Shown: positions 641 through 5,915 of the stretch, piece after piece
How the letters are laid out: each line of letters starts with the position of its first letter
How positions within the stretch are numbered: the first letter of the stretch is position 1
IMG/VR virus record: IMGVR_UViG_2585427787_000007
DNA length: 5,915 nucleotides
Source of the DNA: a virus
Lineage: Duplodnaviria; Heunggongvirae; Uroviricota; Caudoviricetes
Direction: 5' to 3' (one strand)
Made by a program: the position numbers and the translations under genes
The notes under the pieces: generated by a model
Database searches by the model: none
Told to the model about the DNA's origin: nothing
The model's input: only the letters and a program-made list of their open reading frames with translations

Positions 641-705
641 TTAATAACGATATAAAGAATGATAAACCAGTTGTACTTACCTCTCTTGCTGAGGTTCAGA
701 ATGAT

Positions 706-1335
706 TTGTGGGCCTATTGTATTAAAGTCCAAAAGGGGGCTGACGTCACTTATTCTTTCCGAAAAATCAGCAGGGGTAAAGTCACAACAAATGAACCACA
801 AAATATGACTCAGCGCGTATTCGCTTTGTTTGATAAAACAGATAAAGAGTTAAGATCATTTGATGGCAGCGCAGTCAATTTTGATGACAAAATCGATTGT
901 ATTTATATAAAAGATCAATTTTATGTATTTCATAAGAAAAGTTTTGAGGCTATTGTAGGCTTGGAGGTTGAGTTTACAGAAGCTGCACAAAAAACATTAA
1001 ATACAATTAAAGAACTTGATCTTATTGAAGGTTTAGATGTTATTGAACAAGCTATTCTTCATAAGCCATCACTGAGAAAAATTCTCACTCATATCGCTGA
1101 GAAAGGTAACCATACGGTTCTGGAAAAGAATGATGTTCAAGCTATGAATGATGTGCTAAAAATGTTTCAGAACGAAGAGTTTAAGACCAATGAGCATGGT
1201 AAATTAGTCATAGAAGATGAGAGGCAAGGAAGAAACTTTCTCAAACTGTTAAATGATTATTATAAACAAGGCATGACTACAAAAAAATACTATGGTACGG
1301 ATAGCGGAAATGTGATTAACCCTATTAAGGCGTAA
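706..1335 (+). CDS. Hypothetical protein, AT-rich; probably the 3' fragment of a gene decapitated by the IS1 insertion (frame open back to the IS1 junction at 641)
   Basis: Frame 1 has no stop between 583 and 1335. The only in-frame start candidates after the IS1 end are TTG 706 and ATG 805. Hand counts on sample 60-mers give about 23-35% G+C against about 60% in ydfU. No family recognised from sequence. Confidence 0.55.
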   Translation: MWAYCIKVQKGADVTYSFRKISRGKVTTNEPQNMTQRVFALFDKTDKELRSFDGSAVNFDDKIDCIYIKDQFYVFHKKSFEAIVGLEVEFTEAAQKTLNTIKELDLIEGLDVIEQAILHKPSLRKILTHIAEKGNHTVLEKNDVQAMNDVLKMFQNEEFKTNEHGKLVIEDERQGRNFLKLLNDYYKQGMTTKKYYGTDSGNVINPIKA

Positions 1336-1683
1336 AGCATATACTATATCTGGAACTGAAATACCAGCCGCCATCAGAAAGAACTGATGGGGCTTACAGA
1401 TAGTAAGTAAATATAAAATGTTAAGGTATTTTTCATGCAAAAATGAAAATCATTGGCACAAATTAGAAACTAAGTAAATTGCTAATACTAATAACTTATT
1501 ATTCTACTTACTATTTGCATGGAGTTATTGTGAATTGCTGGAAAGGTGGGTAATGTTTTTGTAGAATCACGGCGGGTGCTTGAGGCTATCTGCCTCGGGC
1601 ACGAACACCAAAGGCAGATAGAGAAAAGCCCCAGTTAACATTACGCGTCCTGCAAGACGTTTAACATTAATCTGAGGCTCCCT

Positions 1684-1896
1684 ATGCATGACAACATCAG
1701 GTTAGCCTCTTATGTGCCGAAAGGCAAGGAGAAGCAGGCTATGAAGCAGCAAAAGGCGATGTTAATCGCCCTGATCGTCATCTGTTTAACCGTCATAGTG
1801 ACGGCACTGGTAACGAGGAAAGACCTCTGCGAGGTACGAATCCGAACCGGCCAGACGGAGGTCGCTGTCTTCACAGCTTACGAACCTGAGGAGTAA
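1684..1896 (+). CDS. mok-like in-frame upstream reading frame of the hok locus (N-terminally extended Hok, 70 codons)
   Basis: ATG 1684 is preceded by GAGG at 1674-1677 with a 6 nt spacer and is in frame with hokD. My recollection is that chromosomal mok frames are N-terminal extensions of hok; that is not verified here. Confidence 0.4.
   Translation: MHDNIRLASYVPKGKEKQAMKQQKAMLIALIVICLTVIVTALVTRKDLCEVRIRTGQTEVAVFTAYEPEE
1741..1896 (+). CDS. hokD: Hok/Gef-family type I toxin (small membrane-depolarising peptide), HokD/RelF-like
   Basis: 51-aa product MKQQKAMLIALIVICLTVIVTALVTRKDLCEVRIRTGQTEVAVFTAYEPEE with a hydrophobic TM segment and the conserved RKxLCE...EVA motif of the Hok family; SD AAGGAG at 1726-1731. 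Confidence 0.9.
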   Translation: MKQQKAMLIALIVICLTVIVTALVTRKDLCEVRIRTGQTEVAVFTAYEPEE

Positions 1897-1903
1897 GAGA
1901 CCC

Positions 1904-1925
1904 GGCGAGGGAGAAATCCCTCGCC
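1904..1925 (+). other. Stable hairpin in the hok 3' UTR (9-bp stem GGCGAGGGA/TCCCTCGCC, GAAA loop)
   Basis: Perfect inverted repeat read directly, 8 nt after the hokD stop; hok mRNAs are known to carry structured 3' ends involved in fold-back inhibition. Confidence 0.45.
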
Positions 1926-1965
1926 ACCTCTGATGTGGCAGGCATCCTCAACGCACCCGCACTTA

Positions 1966-1990
1966 ACCCGCTTCGGCGGGTTTTTGTTTT
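1966..1990 (+). terminator. Rho-independent terminator of the hok transcript (stem ACCCGC/GCGGGT, TTCG loop, T-rich tail)
   Basis: 6-bp GC-rich stem with a UUCG tetraloop followed by TTTTTGTTTTT. Confidence 0.6.
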
Positions 1991-2004
1991 TATTTTCAAC
2001 GCGT

Positions 2005-2034
2005 TTGAAGTTCTGGACGGTGCCGGAATAGAAT
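2005..2034 (+). promoter_or_regulatory. Candidate sigma70 promoter upstream of rem (-35 TTGAAG, 18-bp spacer, -10 TAGAAT)
   Basis: Hexamers read by eye at 2005-2010 and 2029-2034; not experimentally supported. Confidence 0.25.
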
Positions 2035-2112
2035 CAAAAATACTTAAATAGCGCGCAGGGATAAGAGGGATGGTCCCTTAAAGGGGAGAGCTAATTATCC
2101 GGAAGGATTCTG

Positions 2113-2364
2113 ATGATGAACATCGAAGAACTGCGTAAAATTTTTTGTGAAGATGGCCTCTATGCTGTGTGCGTTGAAAATGGAAATCTTGTTAGTCATT
2201 ACCGCATTATGTGTTTGCGAAAGAATGGGGCTGCGTTAATTAATTTTGTGGATGCTCGGGTCACGGACGGATTTATCTTGCGCGACGGTGAGTTTGTCAC
2301 TTCATTACAGGCATTGAAAGAGATCGGAATAAAAGCTGGCTTTTCTGCTTTTTCAGAAGAATAA
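2113..2364 (+). CDS. rem: Rem, small prophage protein of unknown function (Qin-type prophage)
   Basis: 83-aa ORF MMNIEELRKIFCEDGLYAVCVENGNLVSHYRIMCLRKNGAALINFVDARVTDGF... matches my recollection of E. coli Rem, and it sits immediately downstream of hokD as in Qin. SD GGAAGGA at 2101-2107. Confidence 0.8.
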   Translation: MMNIEELRKIFCEDGLYAVCVENGNLVSHYRIMCLRKNGAALINFVDARVTDGFILRDGEFVTSLQALKEIGIKAGFSAFSEE

Positions 2365-2430
2365 ACTCATCTACAATCTTGCGCGGGGCTGAACTCCCGC
2401 TGAGTAACACCGTGCCACCGGAGAAAACCG

Positions 2431-2709
2431 ATGGCACGCAACGCAAAATATTACAATCATGATAATTCGACCGTTCTTGCCCACACGCACGAGCGGTATT
2501 CTCACGCATTTAAGTCAGACTGGTACCAGCATCCCCCATGCACTGAAGAACAGGCCGAATGGCTCATTCAGTGTTACCGCAGGCGCGGATACGAGGTTAA
2601 AAAAGCCCTTAGCCTCGACTACCGTCACTGGATAATCTCAGTCAGATTGCCTTACTCCGAACGCCCACCGCGTCCGTCCCGCACATTCCAGCAACGCATC
2701 TGGAGGTAA
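2431..2709 (+). CDS. Hypothetical 92-aa protein (unnamed ORF between rem and ydfU)
   Basis: ATG 2431 has SD GGAG at 2420-2423 with a 7 nt spacer; normal G+C; stop TAA 2707-2709 lies 2 nt before the ydfU start. No homolog recalled. Confidence 0.4.
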   Translation: MARNAKYYNHDNSTVLAHTHERYSHAFKSDWYQHPPCTEEQAEWLIQCYRRRGYEVKKALSLDYRHWIISVRLPYSERPPRPSRTFQQRIWR

Positions 2710-2710
2710 C

Positions 2711-3760
2711 GTGCGGGTATTACTTCGACCTGTTCTGGTACCGGAACTCGGGCTGGTGGTCGTTAAGCCGGGCCGTGAATCCATGCCGGTATTCCACAAT
2801 ACCCGGGTACTGGTGGAGCCGGAACCGAAAAGCATGCGTAATCTGCCGTCCGGGGTCGTTCCTGCCGTTCGCCAGCCGCTGGTGGAAGACAAAACATTGC
2901 TGCCGTTTTTCAGTAACGCACGGGTAATTCGTGCTGCTGGTGGTGCTGGTGCATTGTCTGACTGGCTGTTGCGCCATATTAAATCCTGCCAGTGGCCACA
3001 CGGCGATTATCATCACAGCGAAACCGTTATTCACCGTTATGGTACCGGCGCAATGGTGTTGTGCTGGCACTGCGACAACCAGCTGCGTGACCAGACATCC
3101 GAATCACTCGAGCAACTTGCTCATCAAAATCTGTCAGCATGGATGATTGACGTCATCGGTCACGCAATAAGCGGTACGCAGGAGCGTGAATTATCTCTGG
3201 CTGAATTATCCTGGTGGGCGGTCCGCAATCAGGTGGCGGACGCGCTACCGGAAGCGGTATTACGTCGTTCGCTGGGGTTGCGTGCGGAAAAAATCCGCTC
3301 AATGTACCGTGAAAGCGACATCGTACCGGGAGAGCAGACCGCCACCAGCATACTGAAACAGCGCACAAAAAATCTTGCGCCGCTGCCTCACGCCCACCAG
3401 CAACAGAACCCACCACAGGAAAAGACGGTGGTCAGCATTGCCGTTGATCCTGAGTCTCCGGAATCTTTCATGAAACGACCTAAACGTCGCCGCTGGGTTA
3501 ACGAGAAATACACACGCTGGGTGAAGACACAGCCGTGTGCGTGTTGTGGTAAGCCAGCCGACGATCCCCATCACCTGATTGGTCATGGTCAGGGCGGAAT
3601 GGGGACAAAATCTCACGATATTTTCACGCTACCGCTGTGTCGGGAGCATCACAACGAGCTTCATGCGGATCCTCTGGCGTTCGAAGAAAAGCATGGTTCT
3701 CAGGTTGATTTAATTTTTCGTTTTCTTGATCACGCCTTTGCAACTGGCGTGCTTGGGTAA
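2711..3760 (+). CDS. ydfU: DUF968-family prophage protein YdfU-like, with a C-terminal Cys/His HNH-like metal-binding motif (start uncertain: GTG 2711 or ATG 2783)
   Basis: 349-aa ORF; C-terminal ...WVKTQPCACCGKPADDPHHLIGHGQGGMGTKSHDIFTLPLCREHHNELHADP... matches the YdfU/DUF968 family from memory; position between rem and the Q gene agrees with Qin. Confidence 0.8.
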   Translation: MRVLLRPVLVPELGLVVVKPGRESMPVFHNTRVLVEPEPKSMRNLPSGVVPAVRQPLVEDKTLLPFFSNARVIRAAGGAGALSDWLLRHIKSCQWPHGDYHHSETVIHRYGTGAMVLCWHCDNQLRDQTSESLEQLAHQNLSAWMIDVIGHAISGTQERELSLAELSWWAVRNQVADALPEAVLRRSLGLRAEKIRSMYRESDIVPGEQTATSILKQRTKNLAPLPHAHQQQNPPQEKTVVSIAVDPESPESFMKRPKRRRWVNEKYTRWVKTQPCACCGKPADDPHHLIGHGQGGMGTKSHDIFTLPLCREHHNELHADPLAFEEKHGSQVDLIFRFLDHAFATGVLG

Positions 3761-3772
3761 AAGAGGTGAGTG

Positions 3773-4147
3773 ATGCTCATAGATTTGGTTTTACCTTACC
3801 CGCCGACGGTGAACACTTACTGGCGACGCCGTGGCAGCACATATTTTATCTCGGAGGAGGGAAAGCGTTATCGCCGGGCTGTGGCGCTTATTGTTCGCCA
3901 GCAGCGGCTGAAATTAAGCCTGTCCGGAAGGCTGGCGATAAAGGTGATTGCAGAGCCACCGGATAAGCGTCGTCGCGACCTGGACAATATCCTGAAAGCA
4001 CCGCTGGATGCGCTGACGCATGCGGGAGTGTTAATGGACGATGAGCAGTTTGATGAAATCAATATCGTTCGTGGTCAGCCAGTATCTGGTGGACGTCTGG
4101 GGGTGAAGATTTACCCCATAATGCATGAAGAGCAGGTCAAAAAATGA
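3773..4147 (+). CDS. rusA: RusA-family Holliday junction resolvase (crossover junction endodeoxyribonuclease)
   Basis: About 125 aa; acidic motifs RRRDLDN and MDDEQ correspond to the catalytic Asp cluster of RusA. SD AAGAGG at 3761-3766 with a 6 nt spacer to ATG 3773 (GTG 3770 also in frame). Confidence 0.8.
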   Translation: MLIDLVLPYPPTVNTYWRRRGSTYFISEEGKRYRRAVALIVRQQRLKLSLSGRLAIKVIAEPPDKRRRDLDNILKAPLDALTHAGVLMDDEQFDEINIVRGQPVSGGRLGVKIYPIMHEEQVKK

Positions 4148-4965
4148 AACTGGAAGATTTACCGAAATACTACTCCCCAAAATCCCCTTGCCTGACCGAT
4201 GCATCGGCCTCAACGTCAAAAGATGCGCTGAGTATCACTGATGTGATGGCCGCGCAGGGCATGACACAGAATCGGGCTGAGATGGGGTTTTCTGCGTTCC
4301 TGGGGAAAATGGGCATCAGTATGAATGACAGGGCGCGGGCAACAGAATTACTGGCAGATTATGCACTCAGTCGGTGCGATCGTGTGGCGGCGTTGAGAAA
4401 ACTTCCGGCAGAAATAAAACCGTTAGTGATGCGCATTATGGCTTCGTACGCTTTTGAGGATTATGCCCGCAGCGCAGCGAGTAAAAAGCAGTGCCCTTGT
4501 TGCTATGGGGAAAAATTTATTGAAAGCGTAGTTTTTACAAACAAGGTCCAGTATCCGGATGGTAAGCCGCCGGTATGGGCAAAGTGTACGAAAGGTGTGT
4601 ATCCGTCTTACTGGGAAGAATGGAAAAAAGTCAGGGAGGTGGTAAAAGTTGCCTGTCCGGAGTGTGGCGGAAAGGGTGAGGTTTCCACCGTCTGTAAGGA
4701 TTGCCGTGGGCGTGGTGTCGCCATTCACCGTGAAGAGTCGGTAAAACGTGGTATGCCTGTTATCAGAGACTGCCAGCGTTGTGGTGGTCGTGGCTATGAA
4801 AGACTACCATCAACGGAGGCATTTAATGCTATATGCGAGGTGACAAACCAGATAACACGCGCGTCATGGGAAAAAACAGTTAAGAAATTCTATGATGCGC
4901 TGGTGACCCGGTTTGATATTGAAGAAGCATGGGCTGAGCGGCAGTTAAAAAAGGTAACTAGGTAA
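4144..4965 (+). CDS. Late-gene antitermination protein Q (phage 82/21/Qin-type Q) with three CxxCxGxG zinc-finger-like repeats
   Basis: 273-aa ORF; N-terminus MKLEDLPKYYSPKS..LTDASASTS and the C-terminal YDAL region resemble the QuuQ/YdfT-type Q from memory. CPECGGKG, CKDCRGRG and CQRCGGRG repeats read directly. Start ATG 4144 overlaps the rusA stop (ATGA). Confidence 0.8.
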   Translation: MKLEDLPKYYSPKSPCLTDASASTSKDALSITDVMAAQGMTQNRAEMGFSAFLGKMGISMNDRARATELLADYALSRCDRVAALRKLPAEIKPLVMRIMASYAFEDYARSAASKKQCPCCYGEKFIESVVFTNKVQYPDGKPPVWAKCTKGVYPSYWEEWKKVREVVKVACPECGGKGEVSTVCKDCRGRGVAIHREESVKRGMPVIRDCQRCGGRGYERLPSTEAFNAICEVTNQITRASWEKTVKKFYDALVTRFDIEEAWAERQLKKVTR

Positions 4966-4970
4966 CAAGG

Positions 4971-4998
4971 TTGATTTTTCCGGAATCTGTGGTAAATT
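4971..4998 (+). promoter_or_regulatory. PR'-like late promoter with the expected qut region (-35 TTGATT, 16-bp spacer, -10 TAAATT)
   Basis: Hexamers immediately downstream of the Q stop; lambda PR' has -35 TTGACT and -10 TAAATT in the same position relative to Q (recalled, not aligned). Confidence 0.5.
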
Positions 4999-5045
4999 CG
5001 TCATAAAGATGGGCTTTTTATACCTGACGTTAGAAGAGTTTCTAC

Positions 5046-5070
5046 AACCCGCCACCGAGCGGGTTTTTTA
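5046..5070 (+). terminator. tR'-like intrinsic terminator (stem AACCCGC/GCGGGTT, 6-nt loop, T6 tail)
   Basis: Inverted repeat 5046-5052/5059-5065 followed by TTTTTTATT; lies about 45 nt downstream of the putative PR' start, as expected for a Q-antiterminated terminator. Confidence 0.55.
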
Positions 5071-5109
5071 TTGCGGAATTAATTACGGACCGTTATTATT
5101 CTGCTCCCG

Positions 5110-5148
5110 TGATCTTACCCAGCAATAGTGGACACGCGGCTAAGTGAG
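5110..5148 (+). repeat. IS3 left terminal inverted repeat (approximate extent)
   Basis: Begins with the TG dinucleotide typical of IS3-family ends; the 39-bp extent is recalled rather than measured, because the right end is outside the window. Confidence 0.55.
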
Positions 5149-5174
5149 TAAACTCTCAGTCAGAGGTGACTCAC

Positions 5175-5474
5175 ATGACAAAAACAGTATCAACCAGTAA
5201 AAAACCCCGTAAACAGCATTCGCCTGAATTTCGCAGTGAAGCCCTGAAGCTTGCTGAACGCATCGGTGTTACTGCCGCAGCCCGTGAACTCAGCCTGTAT
5301 GAATCACAACTCTACAACTGGCGCAGTAAACAGCAAAATCAGCAGACGTCTTCTGAACGTGAACTGGAGATGTCTACCGAGATTGCACGTCTCAAACGCC
5401 AGCTGGCAGAACGGGATGAAGAGCTGGCTATCCTCCAAAAGGCCGCGACATACTTCGCGAAGCGCCTGAAATGA
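5175..5474 (+). CDS. insE: IS3 OrfA (InsE), helix-turn-helix/leucine-zipper transposase subunit
   Basis: [52 protein letters not shown]...[15 protein letters not shown] matches IS3 InsE from memory. Confidence 0.9.
5435..5441 (+). other. IS3 -1 programmed frameshift motif (CCAAAAG, slippage at A-AAG) generating the OrfAB transposase
   Basis: A AAG at 5438-5441 in the insE frame; a -1 shift here reads through in the insF frame (..ILQK then [15 protein letters not shown]..). Established IS3-family mechanism; exact site inferred. Confidence 0.5.
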
Positions 5475-5915
5475 AGTATGTCTTTATTGAAAAACATCAG
5501 GCTGAGTTCAGCATCAAAGCAATGTGCCGCGTGCTCCGGGTGGCCCGCAGCGGCTGGTATACGTGGTGTCAGCGGCGGACAAGGATAAGCACGCGTCAGC
5601 AGTTCCGCCAACACTGCGACAGCGTTGTCCTCGCGGCTTTTACCCGGTCAAAACAGCGTTACGGTGCCCCACGCCTGACGGATGAACTGCGTGCTCAGGG
5701 TTACCCCTTTAACGTAAAAACCGTGGCGGCAAGCCTGCGCCGTCAGGGACTGAGGGCAAAGGCCTCCCGGAAGTTCAGCCCGGTCAGCTACCGCGCACAC
5801 GGCCTGCCTGTGTCAGAAAATCTGTTGGAGCAGGATTTTTACGCCAGTGGCCCGAACCAGAAGTGGGCAGGAGACATCACGTACTTACGTACAGATGAAG
5901 GCTGGCTGTATCTGG
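5471..5915 (+). CDS. insF: IS3 OrfB (InsF, DDE transposase catalytic subunit), 3'-truncated by the window edge
   Basis: [36 protein letters not shown]... in the -1 frame relative to insE, overlapping its stop (ATGA); matches IS3 InsF from memory. Confidence 0.9.

Follow-up and report, generated by a model that had tools for sequence, protein, structure and literature searches.

The window, the whole 5,915-base stretch of DNA analysed here, is part of a lambdoid prophage that resembles Qin/mEp460 and comes from E. coli or Shigella. Its genes and elements are as follows.

Up to 640: right end of an IS1, with the insB ORF at 122-625
641-1335: 3' part of kwaB (Kiwa; PF16162), cut by the IS1
1574-1896: sok/hokD (Rfam sok, 110 bits, E=3e-25)
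2113-2364: rem
2431-2709: 92-aa ORF
2711-3760: DUF968/ydfU
3770-4147: rusA
4144-4965, plus strand: Q antiterminator gene, 273 aa
4966-5109: the intergenic region studied here, between Q and IS3
5110-5915, plus strand (the orientation of Q): IS3, cut off at the end of the window

Strain C6 (CP195945; locus L004) is 100% identical to the window across 641-5109. The earlier note on this DNA had read the prophage as degraded from its IS1 and IS3, and this holds, with at least two IS hits confirmed and the IS1 end at 640 truncating kwaB. Intact kwaA and kwaB (340 aa) occupy the same place in the otherwise identical prophages of strains C6 and GCA_012037365, so the IS1 with its right end at 640 has inactivated a prophage-borne anti-phage defence system, Kiwa, in the window prophage. 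The sok antisense RNA/hokD (relF) type I toxin-antitoxin locus is complete (1574-1746 and 1684-1896), and after it, at ~1962-1986, lies a strong terminator-like hairpin, AACCCGCTTCGGCGGGTTTTT, with weak isrK/rsmX Rfam hits. The ydfU homologue in the mEp460_ev081 record (L020, 1782-2831), whose window counterpart is at 2711-3760, is labelled 'Phage antitermination protein Q'; Pfam returned only DUF968 and a weak HNHc_6 hit for this DUF968/HNH-like homologue, and the label is probably an annotation error.

The Q protein of the window belongs to the lambda-Q family (Pfam PF03589 Antiterm, E=8e-55). BLASTP aligned it to lambda Q at 31% identity in an alignment spanning both termini (E=2e-39), and it matched PDB entries 7UBM (E=1.9e-40) and 4MO1. 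Its N-terminal segment aligns well with residues 1-44 of lambda Q, which refold into an exit-channel 'torus' (PMC9388147). The protein carries an extra 66-aa insertion relative to lambda Q (residues ~114-182) with DnaJ-type CXXC/CXXCXGXG zinc-finger motifs, for which the DnaJ_CXXCXGXG hit was sub-threshold, and this insertion falls in the part aligned to the zinc-ribbon 'arm' of lambda Q. In lambda the arm makes contact with sigma region 4 and with the distal part of the Q-binding element.

The Q stop codon (4963-4965) ends 5 bp upstream of the first of the following features, which fill the intergenic region and the left part of IS3.

4971-4976, plus strand: -35 hexamer of the candidate PR' promoter, TTGATT, aligned to lambda TTGACT
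4977-4992, plus strand: 16-bp spacer of PR', with an extended -10 TG at 4990-4991 near its end
4993-4998, plus strand: -10 hexamer of PR', TAAATT, identical to the lambda PR' -10
5005-5013, plus strand: predicted start A5005 and predicted sigma-dependent pause element AAAGAT followed by GGG, from the lambda alignment
5046-5071, plus strand: tR' intrinsic terminator, with stem AACCCGC/GCGGGTT, loop CACCGA and a T-run
5070-5109, plus strand: conserved 40-bp tRNA upstream block, ATTGCGGAATTAATTACGGACCGTTATTATTCTGCTCCCG
5071-5099, plus strand: candidate tRNA-operon promoter, with -35 TTGCGG at 5071-5076, a 17-bp spacer and -10 TATTAT at 5094-5099
5107-5109, plus strand: CCG, candidate left copy of the 3-bp IS3 target duplication
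From 5110, plus strand: left inverted repeat of IS3, starting TGATC
5175-5474, plus strand: IS3 orfA (insE), Pfam HTH_Tnp_1
From 5471, plus strand: IS3 orfB (insF), whose frame overlaps orfA

A lambda-PR'-like promoter after Q (TTGATT, 16 bp, TAAATT) had been described in the earlier note, and our reading of these positions agrees with it. Its hexamers match the consensus at 8 of 12 positions, and the sigma-70 promoter that they would form has the status of a candidate. The generic promoter scan of 4966-5109 (threshold 9/12) listed neither PR' nor the tRNA promoter, and shuffled sequence yields ~1.5 promoter-like sites at the scan's stricter threshold. Hexamer similarity alone is thus no better than chance, and the promoter calls made here therefore rest on homology and conservation instead.

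The homology extends well past the hexamers. Lambda TAAATT-TGACTC-AACGAT-GGG and window TAAATT-CGTCAT-AAAGAT-GGG stand in register column for column, which places AAAGAT-GGG at predicted positions +1 to +9, opposite lambda AACGAT-GGG; pausing itself is likewise predicted. In lambda the second hexamer (+1 to +6) is a -10-like sigma-dependent pause element that is required by polymerase for Q loading. The window has a single copy of the composite TAAATT-N6-AAnGATGGG, where 0.01 would be expected, and 17 of the 28 fetched loci, phage lambda among them, have a single copy of its relaxed form (TAAAnT), placed right behind Q; the fetched loci without it have AATAAT-GGG or a variant -10 instead. Among relatives the pause hexamer reads AAAGAT, AATGAT, AACGAT or AATAAT, varying only at positions 3 and 4, and the A at position 2, the T at position 6 and the GGG are invariant. 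Positions 2 and 6 of the hexamer are the bases most critical for sigma region 2. The qut/tR' arrangement that had been proposed to follow Q is thereby supported, as a lambda-type PR'/qut/tR' cassette behind a lambda-family Q, an architecture described in PMC9388147.

With the late cassette of lambda the window shares the Q family (PF03589), the -10 TAAATT, the 6-nt gap to the pause hexamer and GGG, and the intrinsic terminator, but it differs in the 66-aa zinc-finger insertion in the DNA-binding arm of its Q, in a spacer of 16 bp rather than 17 bp with unrelated sequence, and in having TTCGTC where lambda has a -35-like TTGACT upstream of the pause element. The Q-binding element of lambda sits between the -35 and the -10, and by analogy we infer such an element in the window spacer at 4977-4992. 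This spacer is conserved in close relatives and is unrelated in sequence to the lambda Q-binding element, a divergence that would be expected for a different Q specificity; the insertion in the Q arm would fit with a spacer unlike that of lambda.

The earlier note had also placed an intrinsic terminator at 5046-5070, and scan and fold both confirm a hairpin at 5046-5065 followed by a T-run. The stem, which has seven pairs, five of them G-C, was called by the scan and is present in the minimum-free-energy fold; among relatives it is conserved while the loop varies. The terminated PR'-tR' RNA is predicted to be ~66 nt long (5005 to ~5070), with a fold of −17 kcal/mol and a z-score of −1.8, in contrast to the 194 nt of lambda 6S RNA. 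Rfam detected no family above threshold in 4966-5109, and a Trp_leader hit (27 bits against a 41-bit cutoff) was rejected as terminator-driven. By design the unit resembles those of StxS and lambda 6S (PMC7547250), in that a constitutive PR' with immediate termination at tR' would be expected to give an abundant RNA in lysogens, and the ~66-nt RNA may thus be an analogue in origin of both. Homology to StxS was not established; the PR'-tR' interval of Sakai Sp5 is 258 nt and follows a much shorter Q of 144 aa. The window contains the template for the predicted RNA.

What IS3 has interrupted is apparent from IS3-free relatives, whose sequence matches the window at 100% identity as far as 5109; in them, a phage tRNA-Ile(CAU) gene has base 5109 (G) as its base 1. 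For strain O177:H21 (L001), RefSeq and ARAGORN agree in placing the tRNA start (anticodon CAT) at position 6410, the counterpart of window 5109; the native sequence across the site reads ...CTGCTCCC/GGTCCTTTAGCTCAG..., with the slash marking the insertion point. The genes downstream in that strain are, in order, tRNA-Ile, tRNA-Arg(UCU), a DUF3927 gene, TolA-like fragments, holin (essD), ydfR and lysozyme, with the lysis genes ~2.5 kb past Q, and other IS3-free relatives have terminase genes as well. In the window ARAGORN found no tRNA at the IS3 site, where just base 1 of tRNA-Ile is left. Of 5426 complete E. coli genomes, 1238 carry the intact arrangement, which also occurs in phage mEp460. 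Comparison with IS3-free relatives had been proposed as a check in the earlier note, and the native downstream sequence is indeed late-gene related (holin, YdfR, lysozyme, terminase). The expectation of lysis or cold-shock genes at the IS3 site is not borne out: lysis genes do lie further downstream in relatives, but the immediate neighbour is the tRNA-Ile/tRNA-Arg cassette.

The 40-bp block at 5070-5109 precedes tRNA-Ile in three contexts, and in the alignment homology begins at ATTGC each time: behind tR' here, behind the end of a methylase gene in Sakai Sp5/Stx2_EH1910 and behind the right end of an IS200C in C6. Many E. coli genomes match solely from this block onward. Within the block, positions 1-4 and 6 of the -35 hexamer are invariant, position 5 is G or A, and the -10 hexamer is invariant. 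A primary start site for the tRNA promoter of Sp5 is reported in PMC7547250, and TTGCGG-17-TATTAT is probably that promoter. Transcription would then be predicted to start at ~5106-5109, and on this promoter reading IS3 lies between the -10 of the tRNA promoter and base 2 of the tRNA.

The tRNA genes of the relatives recall the ileZ-argN-argO cassette of Sakai Sp5 and 933W, which has the same tRNA-Ile(CAU), the same 40-bp block (ATTGC..TATTAT..CCCG) and a position in the late operon downstream of Q/tR'. In contrast to that cassette, which follows a methylase gene and has three tRNAs, the one here abuts tR' directly and, in the relatives of the window, has two (Ile and Arg-UCU). The quuQ region of K-12 Qin is alike in its gene order (hokD-rem-ydfU-Q), in a lambda-family Q with a DnaJ-like insertion, and in its pause element AACGATGGG and ACCCGC/GCGGGT terminator. 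K-12-type Qin differs in having a 250-aa Q, no rusA, and the cold-shock genes cspF/cspB after tR', where the lineage of the window has rusA, a 273-aa Q and tRNAs.

The left end of IS3, TGATCTTACCC..., begins at 5110, and 28 of its 42 positions match the inverted right end. The match between IS3-free relatives and the window ends at 5109, in agreement with the left end at 5110 and with the distance of ~40 bp past the terminator given in the earlier note, which measures 39 bp from the T-run. Over 5113-5915 the element is identical to K-12 IS3A at 803 of 803 positions. It is like the IS3 of K-12 (insE/insF, 1258 bp, 3-bp duplication), with a full left repeat, TGATC, in the window, but its insertion site is new. 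The K-12 IS3A copy itself (L027, NC_000913 315229-316483) is annotated at 1255 bp without the first three bases of the left repeat, TGA, which are present in the window copy and in the 1258-bp copies of loci L017 and L018. A leader hairpin in IS3 (5144-5174, GUGAGU...ACUCAC) encloses the ribosome-binding site of orfA just before the AUG at 5175; it folds whether the transcript starts inside or outside IS3, with unremarkable z-scores of −0.7 and −1.1.

CCG at 5107-5109, named previously as the left copy of the target duplication, is the only possible left 3-bp copy. Since IS3 makes 3-bp duplications (the copy in L018 is flanked by GTT/GTT), a simple insertion would regenerate CCG-GTCC... at the right end of the element. 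The IS3 right end would in that case be followed by CCG-GTCCTTTAGC, and the right junction would read ...GGGTAGGATCA-CCG-GTCCTTTAGCTCAGTGG....

Neither junction has a counterpart in the collections that we searched. A search with the left junction, as a 39-mer, gave no match in 5426 complete E. coli genomes, plasmids, species-representative genome contigs, metagenome contigs or viral contigs, nor did the predicted right junction match any viral, genome or metagenome contig. The novelty of the IS3 allele, seen in 0 of the 5426 complete E. coli genomes, is confined to that of a strain polymorphism. STEC313 and A21005 also have IS3 near Q, but these copies were rejected as parallels, as they lie upstream in the accessory-gene region and are unrelated insertions. 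The STEC313 copy (L017, 4002-5259) interrupts a P-loop ATPase gene, and its flanks, AAAAGCTAAg on the left and AAAAGCTAAtgc on the right, form a 9-bp direct repeat in place of the usual clean 3-bp duplication.

An independent insertion is present in strain C6 (L004, ~8932-9642), where an IS200C directly follows the T-run of tR' (...TTTTTTATTG and then the element), at the equivalent of window 5073/5074. This site is 37 bp upstream of the IS3 site, and the end of the IS200 regenerates ATTGCGG. One 39-bp spacer between tR' and the tRNA has thus received two different IS elements, IS3 in the window and IS200C in C6. C6 has kept the tRNAs and lysis genes behind its IS200C, so simple IS insertions in this spacer do occur.

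These comparisons indicate that the locus is a lambda-type Q cassette followed by a known lambdoid tRNA cassette and interrupted by a standard IS3, with a putative Q-binding element and a candidate PR'. The reading that we favour, to which we assign a probability of about 0.8, is that a late switch and a tRNA promoter block stand next to each other here and that IS3 was inserted after base 1 of the tRNA in the course of ordinary IS-mediated prophage decay. Under it, 4966-5109 would hold two stacked control units. The first would be a lambda-type late switch, in which PR', with its extended -10, fires constitutively and polymerase pauses at AAAGAT-GGG just past the start; without Q, transcription would terminate at tR' and yield the ~66-nt RNA, and with Q bound near the promoter polymerase would become terminator-resistant. 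The second would be the promoter block of the phage tRNA-Ile(CAU)/tRNA-Arg(UCU) cassette. With its left end after base 1 of tRNA-Ile and its transposase reading the same way as Q, IS3 would part the tRNA genes from their upstream block and put 1258 bp between tR' and everything downstream. With the CCG duplication the tRNA gene would be whole again where IS3 ends on the right, 1258 bp from its promoter, and Q-loaded polymerase would be expected to read through the element, so that late-gene control would be lost only if the far side of IS3 were a deletion or rearrangement junction.

The claim that IS3 uncouples Q from the late genes, made in the earlier note, does not follow from the insertion. 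Suppression of insertion polarity by the antiterminators of lambda is classical genetics. Once loaded with Q, elongation complexes run past pause and termination sites for thousands of bp (PMC9388147). IS3 measures just 1258 bp and is in the sense orientation relative to Q transcription, and a search for intrinsic terminators in it detected none. Late transcription should therefore not be blocked by a simple insertion, which would delay rather than abolish it. Polymerase without Q, starting from the tRNA promoter, would be more exposed to polarity. For true uncoupling, the far end of IS3 would have to border a deletion or rearrangement.

It is possible, if somewhat doubtful, that the main effect of IS3 falls on the tRNA operon, with tRNA-Ile(CAU) and tRNA-Arg(UCU) cut from their promoter, these rare-codon (AUA, AGA) tRNAs silenced and Q-dependent transcription passing through. 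Several observations would be consistent with this: the conserved promoter block directly precedes the tRNA, the tRNAs of Sp5 are driven from a primary start site according to PMC7547250, the insertion separates the -10 (5094-5099) from tRNA base 2, and Q-loaded polymerase is terminator-resistant. Nevertheless, the promoter assignment is itself a prediction, and the tRNAs could still be transcribed by read-through from IS3 or from an outward-facing promoter at its right end.

We consider it unlikely that IS3 marks a deletion or rearrangement junction, at which the tRNAs and late region were lost or moved by IS3-IS3 recombination and Q was uncoupled. The absence of the IS3 junction from the 5426 complete E. 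coli genomes and all other collections searched speaks for such an event, as do the decayed late regions of several relatives, with pseudogenised lysis and tail genes, and an IS-active host, in which the match to C6 begins at 641, where the IS1 truncates kwaB. However, the window can be explained without it: the native sequence runs unbroken to the IS end, which is what simple transposition would leave, and C6, the closest relative, has a simple IS200C insertion 37 bp upstream with tRNAs and lysis genes present.

Two further ideas are together highly improbable, namely that the IS3 transposase is driven from outside by the tRNA promoter or PR', so that its mobility would be tied to induction, or that the ~66-nt RNA is a trans-acting sRNA like StxS. 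The former arises from the position of IS3, which follows directly, in the sense orientation, on a predicted constitutive tRNA promoter and a Q-controlled PR'. Finally, that the PR' hexamers are chance matches and the hairpin a terminator of the early (Q) operon, with no dedicated late switch, is hardly credible: although the 8/12 match, its omission by the scan and the ~1.5 sites in shuffled sequence would allow it, the -10, 6-nt spacing, AAnGAT and GGG match lambda PR' column for column, the composite has an expectation of 0.01, variation is confined to pause positions 3 and 4, and these features persist across Q genes that have diverged to 31% identity.

The favoured reading, of a late switch and tRNA promoter block with IS3 behind them, describes an ordinary locus and not a new system, and its value is mainly one of annotation. 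A very common E. coli prophage lineage carries a predicted lambda-type PR'/pause/tR' switch, and the tRNA cassette directly behind this late switch brings along a portable block that probably holds its promoter. As a polymorphism at the level of strains, the IS3 allele would have no wider consequence unless it alters phage tRNA supply or the expression of IS3 transposase, and, if the sRNA idea were true, the PR'-tR' unit would survive in a decayed prophage for its ~66-nt RNA. For lambdoid prophages the inference to be corrected is that from insertion to uncoupling: because Q-modified polymerase is terminator-resistant, an IS behind a Q-dependent terminator is not in itself enough to uncouple the late genes.
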